From assembly GCA_029550965.1 (NCBI GenBank), contig JAKPGJ010000038.1, positions 3,057 through 67,056 on the forward strand: a stretch of 64,000 nucleotides of DNA, read 5' to 3'. Below are positions 2,731-48,131 of the stretch, one piece after another. How positions within the stretch are numbered: position 1 is the first letter of the stretch; every line of letters begins with the position of its first letter. The DNA comes from Bacillota bacterium. GTDB taxonomy: Bacteria > Bacillota > Clostridia > Oscillospirales > CAG-382. A program made the position numbers and the translations under genes. The notes beneath the pieces are model-generated. The model worked only from the letters and a program-made list of their open reading frames with translations, did not search any database and was not told the DNA's origin.

Positions 2731-3465
2731 TCATTCGAATTCTTTGTATATCTTCTCCATCTCTTCGCTGTAAACGGTATGGCTCTTGTCCGCGTAAACG
2801 CAGAGGTCGGGCTCTATCTTCAGCCCTTCCCGCGCGTCTTTCTTGCCTTCTATCAGCACCAGCGAAGGCGGTTTTCCGCAGGACGGAACCACAAACCGCA
2901 TTCTTTTCGGCTCAATGCGGTGGCTGCGCAGCGAAAACAACAGCCCCGCCAGTCTTTCCGGACGGTAAACCGCAAAGAACTTCCCGCCCGACTTCAAGCA
3001 CCAGGAAGCAGCCCCGCAGATATCGTCGATACTGCAAAAAACCTCGTGAAACGCGATGTTCTTCTGGTCCGACGCGTTCTTTTTGCCGCAGGTGGTTTTT
3101 AGATAAGGCGGATTGGTAAAGACCACGTCGCAGCTTCCGGCTTCGAAATACTTCTTTATTTCCCGAATATCGCCCTGTATAATCTTAAAGCTCTCTAAAA
3201 GGCCGTTTTTTTCAGCGTTCATTTCCGCAGCCCGGCAGTACTCGGGCTGTATCTCGATTCCGGTGATGTTCGCCCGGCACCCGCCGCTCAGAAGCAGCAG
3301 CGGTATAATGCCGCTGCCGGTTCCCAGCTCCGCGCCGGTTCCTTTTTTAAAGCTTTTCATGAAATGCGCGAGCAGAAGAGCGTCGGTACCGAAATAGATA
3401 CCGCCTTCCGGTTCGTATAATACAAGTTTTCGGTTTATCATGGACTGCTTCATATTTAATTCCAT
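2731..3465 (-). CDS. SAM-dependent N6-adenine methyltransferase, tRNA1(Val) m6A37 methyltransferase-like (YfiC/TrmN6 family)
   Basis: 244-aa ORF with a SAM-binding loop (AELGTGSGIIPLLL) and the catalytic VFTNPPY motif. It ends 17 nt upstream of the protease start. Confidence 0.75.
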   Translation of the reverse strand: MELNMKQSMINRKLVLYEPEGGIYFGTDALLLAHFMKSFKKGTGAELGTGSGIIPLLLLSGGCRANITGIEIQPEYCRAAEMNAEKNGLLESFKIIQGDIREIKKYFEAGSCDVVFTNPPYLKTTCGKKNASDQKNIAFHEVFCSIDDICGAASWCLKSGGKFFAVYRPERLAGLLFSLRSHRIEPKRMRFVVPSCGKPPSLVLIEGKKDAREGLKIEPDLCVYADKSHTVYSEEMEKIYKEFE

Positions 3466-14767: not shown

Positions 14768-14843
14768 TGGAGCTGATGACGGGGATTGAACCCGTGACCT
14801 CATCCTTACCAAGGATGTGCGCTACCGACTGTGCCACATCAGC
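14768..14843 (-). tRNA. tRNA-Thr (anticodon GGT)
   Basis: 76 nt. The minus strand reads GCTGATGTGGCACAGTCGGTAGCGCACATCCTTGGTAAGGATG...GGTTCAATCC...CATCAGCTCCA. The anticodon stem is CATCC/GGATG with loop TTGGTAA. A T-loop is present and CCA is encoded. Confidence 0.93.
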
Positions 14844-14869
14844 AAAAGTGTTTCCTATAAAGGAAACGC

Positions 14870-14946
14870 TGGCGATTCGGATGGGGCTCGAACCCACGAC
14901 CTCTAGCGTGACAGGCTAGCGTTCTAACCGACTGAACTACCGAACC
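14870..14946 (-). tRNA. tRNA-Asp (anticodon GTC), copy 1
   Basis: 77 nt, GGTTCGGTAGTTCAGTCGGTTAGAACGCTAGCCTGTCACGCTAGAGGTCGTGGGTTCGAGCCCCATCCGAATCGCCA. The anticodon stem is CTAGC/GCTAG with loop CTGTCAC. It is identical to the copy at 15673..15749. Confidence 0.93.
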
Positions 14947-14970
14947 GTATGACGGAGTAATATCCGTTTT

Positions 14971-15046
14971 TGGAGCGGATTACGGGGCTCGAACCCGCTA
15001 CCTCAACCTTGGCAAGGTTGCGCTCTACCAGATGAGCTAAATCCGC
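14971..15046 (-). tRNA. tRNA-Gly (anticodon GCC), copy 1
   Basis: 76 nt, GCGGATTTAGCTCATCTGGTAGAGCGCAACCTTGCCAAGGTTGAGGTAGCGGGTTCGAGCCCCGTAATCCGCTCCA. The anticodon loop is TTGCCAA. It is identical to 15409..15484. Confidence 0.93.
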
Positions 15047-15139
15047 GTTTCCCGTTCGGGCGAATCCGATGCAAACCCGCCCGACATTACTCCGTTTTGA
15101 ATGTATTGCAATGTATAAACGAAGCAACAAAGGAGTATT

Positions 15140-15215
<76 letters not shown>

Positions 15216-15330
15216 AAATGGCTGTTGCTTGTACAAACACAAAAGAATTTAAACCGTTATCCTAAACGTAAAATTGATAGCGAAAGAATTCACGAAGTGA
15301 ATTCTTTCTAACCGAACTTTGTTCGGTTTT

Positions 15331-15405
<75 letters not shown>

Positions 15406-15408
15406 GTT

Positions 15409-15484
15409 TGGAGCGGATTACGGGGCTCGAACCCGCTACCTCAACCTTGGCAAGGTTGCGCTCTACCAGATGAGCTAAATCCGC
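15409..15484 (-). tRNA. tRNA-Gly (anticodon GCC), copy 2
   Basis: Sequence identical to 14971..15046. It starts 3 nt downstream of tRNA-Cys in plus-strand coordinates. Confidence 0.93.
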
Positions 15485-15547
15485 GCATGCTTTTGATACG
15501 CCAACAAAAGAATTCGCCAAGCGAATTCACAAAACAAATTTTTATTT

Positions 15548-15623
<76 letters not shown>

Positions 15624-15672
15624 AGATCCCTTTTGCTTTATACCGCCCCTGTTGTATGTATAAAGGGGAATT

Positions 15673-15749
15673 TGGCGATTCGGATGGGGCTCGAACCCAC
15701 GACCTCTAGCGTGACAGGCTAGCGTTCTAACCGACTGAACTACCGAACC
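15673..15749 (-). tRNA. tRNA-Asp (anticodon GTC), copy 2
   Basis: Sequence identical to 14870..14946. It is the first gene of the operon in the direction of transcription. Confidence 0.93.
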
Positions 15750-34996: not shown

Positions 34997-35746
34997 ATGA
35001 AGCTGGACAACATTATCGCGGTCAGGGCGAAGAAAACCGTTTACCGCGATGGCGATTTGGCGATCAAGGTTTTTGACGAGAGTTTCTCAAAATCCGACAT
35101 CCTCAACGAGGCGCTCAACCAGGCGCGCGTCGAAGAGACCGGGCTGAACGTTCCGAAGCTGATGGAGGTCACCAAAATCGACGGCAAATGGGCGATTGTT
35201 TCCGAGTTCATCGAGGGCAAAACGCTCGAAACGCTGATGAAGGAAAACCCGGATAAGTTCGACCAGTACCTAAACCAGTTTGTGGATATTCAGCTTGAGA
35301 TGCACACCAAAAAAGCGCCCAAGCTCAACAAGCTCAAGGACAAAATGGCAAGCAAAATCAACGAATCCAAGCTGGACGCGACGACGCGGTACGACCTGCA
35401 CACGCGGCTTGCCAGCCTTCCCACGCACGACAAACTCTGTCACGGCGATTTCAACCCGAGCAACATCATCATCAAGCCCGACGGCACGCCGTACATCCTC
35501 GACTGGTCGCACGCCACGCAGGGAAACGCGAGCGCGGACGCGGCAAGAACCTATCTTCTGTTCTGGCTGGCGGGCGAAGCGGATACGGCGCACAAATACC
35601 TAAACCTGTTCTGCCTGAAAAGCGACACCGCGAAGCAGTATGTCCAGAAGTGGATTCCCATTGTCGCGGCTTCGCAATCGGTAAAAGGAAAGCCTGAGGA
35701 ACGCGAATTATTGCTGCGTTGGGTCAGCGTCGTGGACTATCAATAA
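34997..35746 (+). CDS. Phosphotransferase enzyme family protein (APH / choline-kinase fold kinase), substrate unknown
   Basis: 249 aa with a Brenner-type catalytic motif (LCHGDFNPSNIII) and a DW metal-binding region (YILDWSHA). It starts 4 nt after the adhE stop. Its last 20 codons seed the downstream tandem repeat. Confidence 0.8.
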   Translation: MKLDNIIAVRAKKTVYRDGDLAIKVFDESFSKSDILNEALNQARVEETGLNVPKLMEVTKIDGKWAIVSEFIEGKTLETLMKENPDKFDQYLNQFVDIQLEMHTKKAPKLNKLKDKMASKINESKLDATTRYDLHTRLASLPTHDKLCHGDFNPSNIIIKPDGTPYILDWSHATQGNASADAARTYLLFWLAGEADTAHKYLNLFCLKSDTAKQYVQKWIPIVAASQSVKGKPEERELLLRWVSVVDYQ

Positions 35747-36081
35747 TACCCCCATCAGGCTTTCCTTTCTGGAAAACCCGAGGAACGCGAATTGCTGCCG
35801 CGTTGGGTCAGCGTCTTGGATTATCAATAATACCCCCATCAGGCTTTCCTTTCTGGAAAACCCGAGGAACGCGAATGATTGCTGCGTTGGGTCAGTGTTG
35901 TAGATTATCAATAATGCCTCCATCAGGCTTTCCTTTCTGGAAAACCCGAGGAACGCGAGTTATTGCTGCGTTGGGTCAGTGTTGTAGATTATCAATAATA
36001 CCCCCTTCAGGCTTTCCTTTCTGGAAAACCCGAGGAACACGAATTGCTGCCGCGTTGGGTCAGCGTCGTGGATTATCAATA
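35696..36081 (+). repeat. Tandem repeat of 4.6 x 84 bp. Each unit re-copies the last codons and stop of the upstream kinase gene plus a 24-nt linker.
   Basis: Unit starts (GAGGAACGCGA) fall at 35696, 35780, 35864, 35948 and 36032, an exact 84-nt period. The units are about 90% identical by eye. Each contains ...TGGGTCAG(C/T)GT(C/T)...GA(C/T)TATCAATA(A/G). Confidence 0.97.
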
Positions 36082-36159
36082 GAACAATTTTAAAACGCTT
36101 TTTCGCGCCCTTGCGGATGCGTTGCAGTTGAAAATTCTTACAAGCAACAAGGAGAAAAA

Positions 36160-36552
36160 ATGTTAACCACAGGAATCAAAGGAGTAAAAACCGTTACCGT
36201 AAACGAAACCAACACCGCCGCCGCGATGGGCAGCGGAGAGCTTGGGGTTTTCGCTACGCCGGCGATGCTCGCGCTGATGGAAGCCTGCGCCGCCGAGAGC
36301 GTTAAGCCCTATCTCGACGCGAACAGCTCGACCGTCGGCATTTCGGCAAACATCCAGCACGTCGCCGCGACGCCGGTCGGCATGACCGTCACCTGCGAGA
36401 GCGAGCTGGTCGCGATCGACGGCAGAAAACTTGTGTTTAAGCTGACCGCCCGCGACGAAAGCGGCCTGATCGGCGAGGGCACGCACGAACGGTTTATTAT
36501 CAGCAAAGAGAAGTTCGTAAGCAAGACCTACGCGAAACTGAATAAGCAATAA
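36160..36552 (+). CDS. Hotdog-fold thioesterase (FlK-like / YbgC-superfamily small thioesterase)
   Basis: 130 aa with a GGAG RBS. The sequence pattern (GSGELGVFATPAMLALME...GTHERFII) is typical of this small thioesterase family from memory. Confidence 0.7.
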   Translation: MLTTGIKGVKTVTVNETNTAAAMGSGELGVFATPAMLALMEACAAESVKPYLDANSSTVGISANIQHVAATPVGMTVTCESELVAIDGRKLVFKLTARDESGLIGEGTHERFIISKEKFVSKTYAKLNKQ

Positions 36553-36556
36553 AAAG

Positions 36557-36596
36557 AAAGCTCCCGAAAAAATCCGGGAGCTTTTTTATTTTTTCC
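36557..36596 (+). terminator. Rho-independent terminator
   Basis: AAAGCTCCCG-AAAAAAT-CCGGGAGCTTTTTTATTTTTT. Confidence 0.9.
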
Positions 36597-36944
36597 TCAA
36601 ATGCTCGTATCCGTGCGCTTTTTATATTTTTCATCAAACGCCCGTATCCGAACAGTATCGCCGCGGTTTCAACGTCGTCCGCAAGCCGGCGATTCCATAC
36701 AATGAATCAAACCGCTGCCGGCTGCGTTTTCGAGATAAGGCTGAAACACCAACAAACCTTTGGCGCAGTTAACGAAGCGCGCATGATAATTTTAAACAGA
36801 ACAAATGCAAAGCGGACTTCTTCTCCCGGCCGGCCCTGCGATATCCGGAATTGATATTTTTTATATTTTAATGATACATTTTTAACTTGTTATGCATATC
36901 ATAATAACGGTTATTAATTTTCTTAATATTTTGTTAAATTTCTA

Positions 36945-37008: not shown

Positions 37009-38079
37009 ATGAAAAGAATACTTGTGCTTTTTTGCGTTCTCGCGTTTCTCGTTCCCCTGTTATGCATAAGCACCCGCGCGGCAGAACCCATCACCATATG
37101 GAAGACCGCACAGGCTCCGAAAATCGACTGCGTCCTTGAGGACAGTTACCAGCTCATCGCGGATTCTCAGAAAAATCCAAGTCTGTTTGATATAAAGAAC
37201 AAGCAAAAGCAAAACGTTCAACACCACGTTCAGATATACGCGTGCTGGGACAAGGATTATCTCTACCTATACGTCAAAGCGTCCTGCAACGATCCGCATA
37301 TCGCTTACCGGGACGATGCGGCGATGCATTGGATCTTCAACGCCCATTACGTTATGACGGCGATTCTGCCGGACGACCCGACAAAGGAGATTTACAAAGG
37401 CACGAACGACGATCAAGGCGGCTGGGATTGGAGCACGCTTTACAATAAGAATTACCTGTACGAATGGACTACCATTTACGATTCGAAAAAGAACGAAAGA
37501 GACAGAGCTGACCACTTCGGCGCGCTCGGCAATAAAACCGGATATGACTACCAAGCAAAATCCGAAAAAGGTTACGATATATACGAGGAAAGAATTCCGC
37601 TCAAACAGCTTTCGACGAGCGTCGTGCCCGCCGGTTTGAAACCCGCTGTCGGCTCCGTGTTCGGTTTGGGCGTGAGCGTCGGTTTTGTGGACGTCGGAAC
37701 CGATTATAAAGAAGAAGAACAGGTAAACACGAACTTCAGCAAATACTTTGACGGCAAGAATCTAAGCGCACTGACGCTCTGCAAGCTCGACAGCAATCTT
37801 GACGAGTCGGAGGAAAGCGAAGCCGAGGAGACCAGTTCCGCAGCTTCTTCGCAGACTTCCTCCGTAACCTCCAGCGCCGCTTCGTCCGCGGTATCGAACG
37901 CAGGCGAAACGTCTTCCAAGACCGAGAGCAGCAAATCCGCCGCATCCGTTTCCGAGACGGAAGACATCGGCGATGAGAGCAGCGATTTTGACTACTGGTG
38001 GCTGATCATCAGCGGCACTGCGGTTGTGATCGCCGTTGTCGTCATCGTTCTGATTGTCAGAAAACGCAGACAGGCATAA
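37009..38079 (+). CDS. Secreted, C-terminally membrane-anchored surface protein with a possible CBM9/DOMON-like domain and a Ser-rich stalk
   Basis: 356 aa with a signal peptide (LVPLLCISTRAAEP), a domain containing the YACWDKDYLYLYVKA pattern, a serine-rich linker (SSAASSQTSSVTSSAASS...), a terminal TM helix and a basic tail (VRKRRQA). Confidence 0.7.
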   Translation: MKRILVLFCVLAFLVPLLCISTRAAEPITIWKTAQAPKIDCVLEDSYQLIADSQKNPSLFDIKNKQKQNVQHHVQIYACWDKDYLYLYVKASCNDPHIAYRDDAAMHWIFNAHYVMTAILPDDPTKEIYKGTNDDQGGWDWSTLYNKNYLYEWTTIYDSKKNERDRADHFGALGNKTGYDYQAKSEKGYDIYEERIPLKQLSTSVVPAGLKPAVGSVFGLGVSVGFVDVGTDYKEEEQVNTNFSKYFDGKNLSALTLCKLDSNLDESEESEAEETSSAASSQTSSVTSSAASSAVSNAGETSSKTESSKSAASVSETEDIGDESSDFDYWWLIISGTAVVIAVVVIVLIVRKRRQA

Positions 38080-47372: not shown

Positions 47373-48131
47373 ATGGAAAACAAAATCGGTCTCGTCATCA
47401 AAAACCTCCGCAAAGAAAAGGGCATCAGTCAGGAAGCATTAGCGCAGGCGATGGGCGTCAGCGTGCAGGCGGTCAGCAAATGGGAAACGCAGTGCTCCTA
47501 CCCGGACATTTTGCTAATCCCGCAGATAGCTGAATTCTTCGGCGTCTCGATCGATTACCTGTTCACCGAGCGCGAGTATAACGCGACCGCCGCTTCCCTG
47601 CCGGACGATGACGTTCTGCGCATCGTTCAGTACAAAGGCAACCAGATGCTGACAAAGAATACTTATGACGCGGACGTAAGGATTCGGTTAAAAATCGACA
47701 AGGAAACCTTCCCGAACAACACAACCGTAAACGTGGAGATATGGGGAAGCGCCGACATCGAAGGCGATGTAAACGGAAACGTCATCGCAGACGACAGTGT
47801 CACTTGCGGCAATGTCGGCGGCGGCGTCAATGCGGGCGACTGCGTCAACTGCGGCAATGTCGGCGGCAGCGTCAGCGCAGGTGAAGAAGTCAACTGCGGC
47901 AATGTCGGCGGCAACGTCAGCGCGGGTGAAGAAGTCAACTGCGGAAATGTCGGCGGCGACGTCCGCGCGGATGAAGATGTCAACTGCGGCGACATCGACG
48001 GCAGTGTCAGCGCGGGCGGCGACATCACCTGCAAAGATATACGGGGCGATGTTCAAAAATGCGAAGGCGACATAAGCTGTCAGGAAATCAAAGGGAATGT
48101 GAACTGCAAGGGCGATATCTATTACGAATAA
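47373..48131 (+). CDS. XRE-family HTH protein fused to a Cys-containing 15-aa tandem-repeat (beta-helix/bactofilin-like) C-terminal domain
   Basis: 252 aa with an N-terminal HTH_3 (LRKEKGISQEALAQAMGVSVQAVSKWE) and a C-terminus of CGNVGGxVxAGxxVN repeats. Confidence 0.8.
   Translation: MENKIGLVIKNLRKEKGISQEALAQAMGVSVQAVSKWETQCSYPDILLIPQIAEFFGVSIDYLFTEREYNATAASLPDDDVLRIVQYKGNQMLTKNTYDADVRIRLKIDKETFPNNTTVNVEIWGSADIEGDVNGNVIADDSVTCGNVGGGVNAGDCVNCGNVGGSVSAGEEVNCGNVGGNVSAGEEVNCGNVGGDVRADEDVNCGDIDGSVSAGGDITCKDIRGDVQKCEGDISCQEIKGNVNCKGDIYYE
47805..48029 (+). repeat. Five in-frame 45-bp tandem repeats inside the XRE-family gene
   Basis: Units start at 47805, 47850, 47895, 47940 and 47985 (TGCGGCAATGTCGGCGGC...GTCAAC). 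The middle units are nearly identical, and degenerate copies continue downstream. Confidence 0.95.

Follow-up and report, generated by a model that had tools for sequence, protein, structure and literature searches.

The end of a conserved kinase gene in the 64-kb window (the whole stretch of 64,000 nucleotides that was analysed here) is part of a tandem array of 84-nt units, which consists of the gene's own end and four copies 3' of the gene. Our analysis favours, with a probability of roughly one half, the explanation that the array is a hairpin-associated, lineage-specific minisatellite lying across the kinase stop codon, with ends that are exchanged by out-of-register homologous recombination. 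It is probably to be regarded as an unusual, recombination-driven minisatellite rather than as a new translation mechanism.

Tandem Repeats Finder detected a period of 84 nt with 4.7 copies, 90% matches and no indels at positions 35687-36081, and this result, along with independent assemblies, confirmed the tandem array reported in a preliminary description of this DNA. The in-frame 84-nt period given in that description was correct, whereas its start (35696) had to be moved to 35687. The full array spans positions 35687-36082, its units start in register (Table 1), and the 84-nt unit comprises the last 19 kinase codons, the stop codon and a 24-nt spacer. In every unit 60 nt read GKPEERELL(L/P)RWVS(V/L)DYQ-stop in the kinase frame and are followed by the spacer, with the exception of unit 5. 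The unit was found nowhere else in the 64-kb window.

The kinase shows Pfam matches to APH (5.8e-11) and RIO1 (5.5e-9), scores under the TIGR02172 cut-off and is 71-78% identical across many Clostridia. The gene coding for the downstream thioesterase is probably co-transcribed with the kinase gene. Scanning for promoters and terminators revealed no such pattern inside the array, and a terminator-like hairpin was detected by the terminator scan at positions 36554-36587, 3' of the thioesterase gene. The adhE gene ends in TAA, and the adhE-kinase junction is not colinear between the compared loci. A +1-frame ORF (35719-36093) and an antisense ORF (35708-35923) were rejected as genes: neither has real Pfam support, and the variable sites alter their amino acids. 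Antisense and +1-frame ORFs have been called across the array in several public assemblies.

Table 1. Location of the array units and of the adjoining features in the window
Feature	Positions	Strand	Remarks
Kinase gene, 249 aa, APH / RIO-Bud32-like phosphotransferase	34997-35746	+	Open reading frame; last 60 nt form array unit 1
Gene-internal arm AAAGGAAAGCCTGA	35684-35697	+	Complementary to the spacer inverted repeat; 5' arm of the long-range stem around the last 19 codons
Unit 1, type A	35687-35770	+	Expressed gene end 35687-35746, stop TAA; spacer 1 at 35747-35770, with inverted repeat 35755-35768
Unit 2, type B	35771-35854	+	Silent; L>P and V>L; followed by spacer
Unit 3, type C	35855-35938	+	Silent; in-frame TGA 35876-35878; followed by spacer variant TGCCTCCA
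Unit 4, type D	35939-36022	+	Silent in the window; wild-type peptide; followed by spacer variant TACCCCCT
Unit 5, type E	36023-36082	+	L>P, R>H, TAG stop (36080-36082); without spacer; adjoins unique sequence
Unique 77-nt spacer	36083-36159	+	Holds the ribosome-binding site of the next gene; conserved among strains
Downstream gene, FlK-like hotdog thioesterase	36160-36552	+	Pfam FlK 4e-39

Pairwise comparison of the window units revealed 2-9 differences in 60 nt (85-97% identity), with unit 4 (type D) differing from unit 1 by seven synonymous changes. The 60-nt part contains 14 variable columns among these units, of which nine fall on codon position 3, three on position 2 and two on position 1. 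Ten of the 14 changes are synonymous or stop-to-stop, three replace an amino acid (L>P, V>L and R>H) and one is a nonsense change, a tally that agrees with the one given earlier. The synonymous excess was significant in a formal test (P about 0.002): given 12 transitions and two transversions at random sites, the probability of at least ten synonymous changes is 0.0019 for the window units, and it becomes 0.0025 when the unit types of other strains are added (15 sites). The codon-like pattern of substitution is confined to the kinase frame; the same changes alter amino acids in the other two forward frames and in the antisense ORF. Old differences between the unit lineages comprise about 10 synonymous and 2 non-synonymous changes; recent strain-level changes comprise 3-4 non-synonymous and at most 1 synonymous. 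The earlier suggestion that the copies evolved, or were sampled, as coding sequence is thus upheld by a significant excess, by its recurrence in a sister species and by the expression of unit 4 in other strains.

CpG-type deamination hot spots were considered as a source of the synonymous excess and rejected: four of the 15 variable sites are CpG transitions, but the process has no bias towards synonymous outcomes. A clonal simulation of duplication and decay or unequal crossover, in which lethal-or-neutral selection acts on the first unit only, did not reproduce the excess; it yielded a synonymous fraction of about 0.3, and the probability of at least 10 synonymous changes out of 15 was at most 0.007.

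Programmed stop-codon readthrough, as proposed in the preliminary description, or else reinitiation might allow the downstream units to be translated, either as modular extensions of the kinase or as small peptides. Such translation would be in line with a period that is a multiple of three and with codon-like substitutions in the kinase frame only, and it would be expected to give rise to peptides such as YPHQAFLSGKPEER. The structure of the array makes this proposal scarcely credible. All units end in TAA or TAG, the stops in the window being TAA followed by T, and adhE also ends in TAA, so that TAA works as a stop; unit 3 additionally carries an internal TGA. All three spacer changes fall on codon position 2 and would change amino acids if translated, and the spacers have neither an in-frame ATG or GTG nor a conserved start. 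The frame is moreover broken in the sister species with a 94% identical kinase, where one spacer opens with a second TAA and another shifts the period to 92 nt.

A comparison of orthologous loci, as suggested earlier, revealed variation of copy number and of units among strains and sister species. The identical five-unit array A-B-C-D-E has been assembled independently from at least seven samples by SPAdes, MEGAHIT and JGI pipelines, all of which gave the same order of units; hence, the array is not a one-off assembly product. Among strains with flanks that are 99.6-100% identical (at most 0.4% divergence), about 10 arrangements with 2, 4 or 5 units were observed: A-B-C-D-E, A-B-C-D-F, A-B-C/D-E, A-F, D-G-C-G-H, D-G-I.., J-C-D-F, N10-F, A-G-N11-N11-F and D-G-C-N11-H. 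The copy number shifts the distance between the kinase and thioesterase genes from 162 to 414 nt. Three of the unit types are hybrids: N10 is A on its left and D on its right, N11 is G on its left and A on its right, and J is an A that carries the right end of a neighbour. These hybrids are the products expected of unequal crossover; at the join of N10 the parental types share only 11 nt.

Unit D is silent at position 4 in the window and is expressed at position 1 elsewhere (L002, L004 and L199). Selection acts on the expressed position: the variants found there (A, D, J and N10) all four encode GKPEERELLLRWVSVVDYQ. Of the silent unit types in the window species, the majority are defective, owing to L>P in the G family and to the TGA in C. 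The idea of silent C-terminal cassettes exchanged by gene conversion, put forward in the preliminary description, therefore needs to be divided: exchange is documented by the hybrids N10, N11 and J, but the cassettes are no store of diversity, as they encode the same peptide or are defective. Over its last 1.2 kb, the gene body 5' of the arrays does not differ between those that begin with A and those that begin with D, and no imported tract is visible. The difference between A and D starts abruptly at unit column 6, and in D-first arrays the join has to lie in the unit's first 5 nt. No mosaicism was detected along the kinase gene, in which informative sites are too few.

All of these arrays derive from short-read metagenome assemblies, in which several contigs end inside the array (L004, L173, L174, L186, L189, L191 and L192) and two-unit arrays from low-coverage assemblies could be collapsed. 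The nature of the data, the many contigs that stop inside the array and the low coverage of some two-unit contigs could be taken to mean that short-read assemblers have strung together strain variants of a locus with one or two copies and that the synonymous bias is a matter of luck. We consider such an artefact very unlikely, given the recovery of one five-unit order by different pipelines from at least seven samples. In addition, the markers that distinguish neighbouring units are less than 100 nt apart, so that each junction should lie within a single read, and the 11-nt shared join in N10 is far under the k-mer sizes of assemblers, so that the hybrids would have to exist in the reads. The synonymous bias, with P = 0.002 here, reaches 4e-5 in an independent species.

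That species, the sister species with a 94% identical kinase, carries four units. Its unit 2 differs from the gene end by eight synonymous changes and one non-synonymous change (P = 4e-5), and its distal unit shows 7-8 non-synonymous changes. The units of this array have diverged (pS 0.59, and about 50% in the spacer outside the repeat) as far as the species themselves have, which would fit old paralogous units under selection as well. A second sister species, with a 97% identical kinase, contains a decayed second copy in which a perfect 11-bp hairpin has been kept. Neither a copy nor an inverted repeat was found in the 91%, 86% and 83% relatives. Likewise, 160 orthologous loci of other species contained no 60-nt copy and no direct or inverted repeat of at least 11 nt between the tail and the downstream DNA.

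Expressed tails turn over between the array-bearing species, to judge by their synonymous sites, of which 12 of about 12 differ as compared with a gene body pS of 0.37; a second comparison of tail and body in array-bearing species gave 0.58 vs 0.30. Unit D and the sister-species unit U2 are as close or closer to the tail of the array-less 91% species than to their own expressed units, and the silent units look older than the expressed ones. The synonymous divergence between units is far above the strain divergence. Among all orthologues compared there was no donor tail nearer than 8 nt, the nearest tails differing by 8-10 nt. Outside the arrays, the unit was absent from the related-locus stretches that were read, and an exact scan of metagenome contigs with the junction 32-mer gave 0 matches in a collection that appears to be without this species. 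The sequence covered in this way lends no support to a dispersed repeat of the REP or MITE-like type.

The spacers differ from one another by 0-3 of 24 nt. Variable sites amount to 3/24 in the spacer vs 14/60 in the coding part, and all three spacer changes lie within the first 8 nt. Thus, the preliminary observation that the linker is better conserved than the coding part amounts to a trend for the linker as a whole, and the 16-nt inverted-repeat part is invariant (0/16 vs 3/8 variable, P = 0.03). It had also been noted that part of the linker is the reverse complement of a sequence inside the gene, and this was borne out: the gene-internal AAAGGAAAGCCTGA and the spacer sequence TCAGGCTTTCCTTT are complementary at 14/14 positions in three of the four spacers, and in the fourth TCAGGCTTTCCTTT lies inside a longer repeat that is 86% complementary. 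The corresponding long-range stem was seen in the centroid fold (stem-loop z = -3.5). The local hairpin proposed previously, GGCUUUCC-UUUCU-GGAAAACC, can fold, yet it contains a C-A mismatch and is weak in the window (-11 kcal/mol, z = -1.6), where the local hairpins have two mismatches. The junction sequence forms a 10/11-5/7-10/11 palindrome. The hairpin is conserved with one compensatory change, U-A to G-C, in the sister species. In view of it, a structured leader of the thioesterase gene, one of the explanations suggested earlier, may be considered. Compared with shuffled sequences, the long-range stems proved more stable (z = -3.5, -5.9 and -2.9), as did the local hairpin of the sister species (z = -5.3 and -3.2); the fold of the whole array was no better than shuffles (z = -1.56).

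Several candidate structures and known element classes were rejected. An interior helix predicted by RNAalifold shows wobble changes only and is 63% paired in 129 distinct orthologous tails, and hence is not the cause of the third-position pattern. Searching Rfam gave nothing at the gathering threshold, and at E values up to 10 there was no match in this region near a family's gathering score. A CRISPR array was dismissed because the spacers are nearly identical rather than unique, and type III antitoxin repeats (ToxIN type) because the adjoining gene codes for a hotdog thioesterase and not for an endoribonuclease toxin.

The invariance of the 16-nt spacer part and the compensatory change go beyond recombination alone and hint at a function. 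One could assume that stem-loop modules in the adhE-kinase-thioesterase transcript, formed by the unit start and the spacer inverted repeat or by the local junction hairpin, set processing, stability or expression of the thioesterase, with copy number acting as a heritable rheostat. Such an RNA-level role would account for the unchanged inverted-repeat part of the spacer, the U-A to G-C change, the perfect hairpin that persists in the 97% species despite decay of the rest of the copy, the stability of the stems relative to shuffles and the dependence of the kinase-thioesterase distance on copy number. We nevertheless hold it to be improbable as the explanation of the array. The array as a whole does not fold better than shuffles and the local hairpins of the window are mismatched and weak, no Rfam match and no promoter or terminator pattern was found in the array, and the RNAalifold interior helix is lost in the 129 orthologous tails. 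Codon-periodic substitutions are left unexplained by structure, and templated repeat copying might by itself have produced the compensatory change.

Another possibility, raised at the outset, is that mobile elements repeatedly entered and left a specific site at the 3' end of the kinase gene. The copies would then be scars of a phage or an integrative element, each insertion having brought a replacement end. Elements that integrate into tRNA, tmRNA or protein genes are known to push the native 3' end of the gene downstream. The junction palindrome recalls the core sites of recombinases, and the join of the D-first arrays is confined to the first 5 nt of the unit. On the other hand, any 'element' lying between two copies would measure just 8-19 nt and be identical each time, and the other hybrids cross over inside the unit, as homologous recombination predicts. 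No integrase or mobile-element genes were found among the window ORFs scanned or the genes called at related loci, and the neighbouring genes scanned are housekeeping genes. Two degenerate pattern scans of 2.9 million viral contigs gave 0 matches to the unit or the junction. The array was not found in phage and plasmid records, each blastn search giving only one match, to the kinase coding sequence; the 'phage' record concerned (MT835503.1) was set aside, as it contains a whole bacterial adhE-kinase-hydrogenase locus with a complete kinase gene. A site-specific integration origin of the copies is therefore very improbable. The related notion that old ends are shunted downstream is retained, with homologous recombination as the means.

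It may also be asked whether the silent copies are themselves selected as intact 'spare ends', either through recombination load or as repair templates at a fragile hairpin. In the first case frequent recombination would time and again attach a defective downstream copy to the gene, with death of the recombinant; in both cases non-synonymous changes would be removed in place. About 10 rearrangements at no more than 0.4% flank divergence would imply, by our estimate, that rearrangements arise roughly 1000 times as often as mutations at a given site, and in a simulation of indirect selection the synonymous fraction rose only part of the way, reaching 0.44 at 2Ne*r = 300 and 0.57 at 3000. Unit 2 of the sister species, moreover, has acquired a single non-synonymous change although divergence within that array is as old as the species split. 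These points are offset by the very large Ne*r that would be required, the strain diversity of about 0.2% suggesting a small one, and by the defects in more than half of the silent unit types of the window species. The model further expects 9-11 variable spacer sites where 3 were seen, and almost every recent change in a silent unit is non-synonymous. Selection of this kind on the silent copies is, in our judgement, doubtful. The same applies, with slightly less credence, to a combined explanation in which spare ends are under purifying selection, being recombination-tested or serving as repair templates, and the array operates as a copy-number rheostat of the thioesterase.

The favoured explanation, a minisatellite whose ends are exchanged by homologous recombination, may be outlined as follows. 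A single ancestral rearrangement would have produced a second copy of the gene's terminal 60 nt, separated from the first by a short spacer in which the opening 11-14 nt of the unit recur in inverted orientation, resembling the leftover junction of a fold-back (tandem-inversion) duplication. As the comparison of strains shows, the array has since grown, shrunk and been reshuffled by out-of-register homologous recombination, in which units pair with other units, with those of the sister chromosome and probably also with those of other strains or close lineages. These events swap the unit that is fused to the gene, shunt old ends downstream and bring downstream units or their right-hand parts into the expressed position; at the expressed position only wild-type 19-residue tails were seen. 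The downstream copies are presumably transcribed and not translated. The main lineages (A and D, and U1 and U2 of the sister species) would have diverged while each was the expressed end and would have been united in one array later, whereas the G/B/E/F/H family and C, which have never been tried at the expressed position, would decay neutrally. The process may thus represent a homologous version of 'C-terminal displacement'. A dedicated cellular function is not required by this scheme, and a role of the hairpin in processing or stability of the operon mRNA is possible.

If the recombination-driven explanation is true, the array illustrates two points for genes other than those of toxins and antigens: out-of-register recombination can drive the turnover of a gene's 3' end, and 'silent' DNA can bear a signature of purifying selection by cycling through the expressed position. 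If instead the silent copies are maintained as spare ends, the array would be a cis-acting reservoir of gene ends, of a class that is new and does not involve toxins or antigens; if it is merely a neutral minisatellite, it is a curiosity. With 84-nt units, 2-5 copies and many haplotypes among near-identical anaerobic-digester strains, the array is a small and tractable system, which might be used for measuring recombination-driven turnover, second-order selection on untranslated copies and hairpin-associated duplication. Arrays of this kind break short-read assemblies and cause spurious ORF calls. The synonymous divergence of the tail is inflated vs the gene body and would therefore mislead dating or recombination scans.

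Similar to bacterial minisatellites (VNTRs), the array is arranged head-to-tail at a single locus and has no indels, its copy number and unit order vary among near-identical strains, and its hybrids show unequal homologous recombination or slippage. Ordinary VNTRs sit either in a coding region, where they are translated, or in non-coding DNA; unlike them, the kinase array starts in the gene and repeats its stop codon; presumably only the first unit is translated, and units enter and leave the translated position. It also bears a signature of purifying selection that simple VNTR models do not give. Tandem inversion duplications of Salmonella and E. coli, which are remodelled by junction deletions, span kilobases and are held by gene-dosage selection. 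The kinase array shares with them two direct copies flanking a short inverted remnant (as the 14-nt inverted repeat in the spacer appears to be) and differs from them in measuring 84 nt and in being now a stable multi-copy array.

Serial integration events at one site yield tandem 3' fragments. As with the displaced 3' fragments at phage and island integration sites, the downstream partial copies described here differ from the gene end and would have evolved as functional sequence elsewhere. Unlike at integration sites, no integrase, inter-copy element DNA or phage-borne copy was found in the records and loci searched, and crossovers occur inside the unit and not only at a fixed core. The array further resembles the Neisseria pilE/pilS and Borrelia vlsE systems, in which promoterless partial copies by an expression site stay open through recombination into it. 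Those systems encode variants for antigenic variation and rely on specialised initiation mechanisms, whereas the expressed units A, D, J and N10 of the kinase array are synonymous and leave the protein unchanged.

The statement that no element with this layout had been described proved roughly right, as our literature search for an equivalent of the array gave only the work on C-terminal displacement in Rhs and CdiA, which is its nearest counterpart (PMC2935791). The ends displaced in Rhs/CdiA are non-homologous kilobase toxin domains with immunity genes and serve functional diversification. The kinase array, by comparison, consists of 60-nt tips that encode the same 19 residues or are defective, has no genes between its units and 8-33-nt hairpin spacers in their place, and belongs to a conserved cytoplasmic kinase with no apparent benefit from switching. 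In other respects the two correspond closely. In both, dissociated 3' ends are lined up behind one complete gene, in CDI systems as orphan cdiA-CT/cdiI modules (PMC2935791), and each dissociated end keeps a piece of the conserved upstream sequence, the four ends here starting at the same codon. When a new end recombines onto an Rhs gene, the old tip is moved by homologous recombination to a silent downstream position (PMC2935791), as proposed here for the kinase, and in both systems silent and attached ends interchange between strains, as unit D does in the present array.

Tandem Repeats Finder revealed one strong array at the 3' end of the kinase gene, with five units lying in register (see table). 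Each unit consists of 60 nt reading GKPEERELL(L/P)RWVS(V/L)DYQ-stop in the kinase frame, followed by a 24-nt spacer; unit 1 is the kinase gene's own end, unit 3 carries a TGA in frame, and unit 5, with a TAG stop, directly abuts unique sequence. No further copy of the unit is present anywhere else in the 64-kb window. The array is by definition a minisatellite, but an unusual one in that its units pass through a translated position. As the repeat period is divisible by three, frames free of stops cross the array, and antisense ORFs of 67-123 aa, almost certainly spurious, have been annotated over it by gene callers in several public assemblies (loci L002, L165, L168, L171, L172, L195, L198 and L199).

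Features located in the window
Feature	Position	Strand	Description
tRNA cluster	14768-15749	-	eight tRNAs: Thr, Asp, Gly, Phe, Cys, Gly, Phe, Asp; Asp-Gly-Phe set duplicated
Kinase gene	34997-35746	+	small APH / RIO-Bud32-like kinase
AAAGGAAAGCCTGA	35684-35697		perfect inverted copy, TCAGGCTTTCCTTT, in the spacer
Array	35687-36081		period 84, 4.7 copies, 90% matches, 0 indels
Unit starts	35687, 35771, 35855, 35939, 36023		units 1 to 5
Stop-free frame	35708-35923	-	crosses array
Stop-free frame	35719-36093	+	crosses array
Thioesterase gene	36160-36552	+	FlK-like hotdog; next gene after array
Hairpin	36554-36587		terminator-like, of thioesterase gene
Tandem duplication	36572-36650		37 nt, 2.1 copies, 83% matches; directly 3' of hairpin
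Serine-rich protein gene	~37009-38079		356 aa, membrane-anchored
ORF	47373-48131		252 aa; N-terminal HTH_3 / RstR-like repressor domain
Tandem repeats within ORF	47774-48049		45/90 nt, in frame (4.7 and 2.7 copies); no family match

AdhE and Rex are encoded upstream of the kinase gene. The kinase is unusually conserved (69-83% protein identity over many families of Clostridia), and its gene, next to Rex-AdhE in the window, elsewhere neighbours 2Fe-2S thioredoxin-like and sensory [FeFe]-hydrogenase-like genes (L005-L164, L183, L201), a setting that points to a function in redox or fermentation signalling. Its score falls far under the TIGR02172 cut-off, yet JGI gives relatives that name. L201 (GenBank MT835503.1, 14953-21092) is a complete bacterial adhE - kinase - 2Fe-2S - PAS/[FeFe]-hydrogenase-like locus in a record deposited under the title 'UNVERIFIED: Bacteriophage sp.', which looks like a bacterial contig within a phage collection. 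The duplication behind the thioesterase gene is the second small gene-end tandem duplication of the kinase-thioesterase operon. Farther downstream, ungapped alignment of other strains to the window fails within the serine-rich gene (apparent differences of 4.8% in L165 and 8.3% in L171, where the protein has 358 aa), suggesting indel polymorphism between strains in its low-complexity region.

Strain loci were retrieved as contigs encoding an identical kinase, or an identical or near-identical thioesterase, from a large number of metagenomes assembled independently with SPAdes, MEGAHIT and JGI pipelines; all strain arrays come from short-read assemblies, and several contigs break off within the array. 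Their flanks were 99.6-100% identical to the window. With sequence types of units denoted by letters, the window arrangement A-B-C-D-E was found in at least six other samples, and other strains carried A-B-C-D-F, A-B-C/D-E (four units), A-F (two units), D-G-C-G-H, D-G-I..., J-C-D-F, N10-F, A-G-N11-N11-F and D-G-C-N11-H. The comparison of orthologous loci proposed in the preliminary description hence yielded about ten arrangements among strains differing at a few sites per thousand, so that gains, losses and reordering of units are rapid compared with point mutation. Type N10 matches A in its left part and D in its right, N11 likewise joins G on the left to A on the right, and J is A with the right end of a neighbour; hybrids of this kind are what out-of-register homologous exchange should produce, one form of it being the passage of sequence from the expressed unit to silent ones. 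An assembly artefact is unlikely as the source of the array, which is reproducible across independent assemblies, and the sequence shared at hybrid joins is far shorter than any assembler k-mer.

The same unit can be silent in one strain and expressed in another: D occupies silent position 4 in the window, and other strains have it, along with its own spacer variant, as their first, expressed unit. Only wild-type tails occupy the expressed position. The four sequences seen there (A, D, J and N10) all encode the same peptide, and units with L>P, V>L, R>H, Q>H or TGA were never first among the arrays examined. Only three proteins make up the 90% cluster of the kinase, and each has the wild-type tail.

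Among window units, the 60-nt part varies at 14 columns, nine of them at codon position 3, and the count of ten synonymous or stop-to-stop, three amino-acid and one nonsense change in the preliminary description proved exact. The synonymous excess is significant on a formal test (P = 0.0019 for at least 10, with transitions and transversions fixed at the 12 and 2 observed), also over 15 sites with the extra unit types of other strains added (P = 0.0025). In the 94% species (relatives are named by kinase identity to the window kinase), nine sites separate unit 2 from the gene end, eight of them synonymous (P = 4e-5); unit 3 has 2-3 non-synonymous changes and the distal unit 4 has 7-8. Within the window species, A and D, separated by a deep unit-lineage difference, show seven synonymous and no non-synonymous changes, A and G five and one, and D and G six and one; changes distinguishing strains are nearly all non-synonymous (V>L, R>H, Q>H). 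Variation was frequent at synonymously changeable sites and the first 8 spacer nucleotides (13/31) and rare at the remaining coding sites and the spacer's 16-nt repeat part (5/53; Fisher P = 8e-4). Between the window and 94% species, 12 of about 12 synonymous sites of the expressed tail differ (gene body pS 0.37), and against the 97% species synonymous divergence is 0.58 in the tail and 0.30 in the gene body. This excess in the tail over the gene body across three array-bearing species implies that the expressed end is itself turning over.

Arrays simulated under point mutation and unequal crossover, with selection solely on the first unit, gave a synonymous fraction of about 0.3, with at least 10/15 synonymous in at most 0.7% of runs, and 6-10 variable spacer sites versus three observed. 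Adding indirect selection against arrays that yield lethal recombinants improved the outcome only at very large Ne*r and predicted even more spacer variation. The coding-like pattern is supported statistically in two species, and simple neutral models fail to explain it. It is possible that selection maintains spare ends, through recombination load or as a repair template, although this is quantitatively workable only with a very large effective population and is awkward with many defective units. Translation of downstream units by stop-codon readthrough, proposed in the preliminary description, conflicts with the strength of the stops, the TGA inside unit 3, spacer changes unlike those of coding DNA, and, in the 94% species, a frame break and a double stop.

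No second gene-end copy, and no direct or inverted repeat of at least 11 nt between tail and downstream DNA, was found in any of 160 orthologous loci of other Clostridia (69-83% protein identity). A protein search uncovered closer relatives at 97%, 94%, 91%, 86% and 83% kinase identity. In the 97% relative, a 22-nt spacer follows the kinase stop, then a perfect 11-bp hairpin TCAGGCTTTCC-TTTTT-GGAAAGCCTGA, whose 3' arm doubles as the beginning of a second, otherwise decayed copy. The 94% relative has four units with periods 93, 93 and 92. The 91% relative, where the thioesterase starts 10 nt past the kinase stop, and the 86% and 83% relatives have no copy after that stop. Hence, the array probably arose once, on the branch leading to the three array-bearing species, and later expanded to differing extents. 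Since a short inverted copy of the unit start sits in the spacer between two direct copies, the origin may have been a fold-back (tandem-inversion) duplication, the remodelled junction of which we take this inverted copy to be. Serial integration of mobile elements, also proposed earlier, lacks support as the source of the units: no integrase, element DNA or phage-borne copy emerged from the genes scanned or from viral, phage and plasmid searches.

The spacers of the 94% species have diverged in about half of the positions outside the repeat and keep GGCTTGCC-TTTTT-GGCAAGCC, a compensatory change versus the window (GGC codon, G in the repeat). Invariance of the repeat part together with this change suggests an additional constraint on the spacer. 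Such hairpin conservation would favour an RNA role of the stem-loops, in mRNA processing or stability or in tuning thioesterase expression by copy number, which may coexist with recombinational turnover; however, the hairpins are weak in the window, the whole-array fold is non-significant, the array has no Rfam match or terminator signal, and codon periodicity is left unexplained.

The array is real, local, rapidly rearranging and limited to three related species, its units being exchanged by out-of-register homologous recombination, and recombinational turnover, not a novel molecular function, is its most likely basis. The main unit lineages may have diverged while each served as the expressed end in different strains or lineages, as A and D, both expressed alleles in the present-day population, do now. 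Diverged ends would later have been united in one array, the older being shunted downstream, where decay begins. Silent D and U2, the second unit of the 94% species, are at least as similar to the tail of the 91% species, which lacks an array, as to their own expressed units, and decay in the 94% species rises with distance from the gene; both hint at such end displacement and its polarity. No donor lineage was found among the tails of fetched orthologues, and strain comparisons showed no imported tract adjoining the array.

Our literature search found no described tandem array of synonymous, stop-bearing gene ends behind a conserved non-toxin gene. In the C-terminal displacement of Rhs proteins, incoming tips recombine homologously and incumbent tips are shunted to silent positions (PMC2935791). 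The array appears to work by the same logic, the old end moving to a silent downstream position; however, Rhs/CdiA tips are non-homologous and functional, whereas those of the array are homologous and synonymous, and since that defining feature fails, the array lies outside the Rhs/CdiA family.
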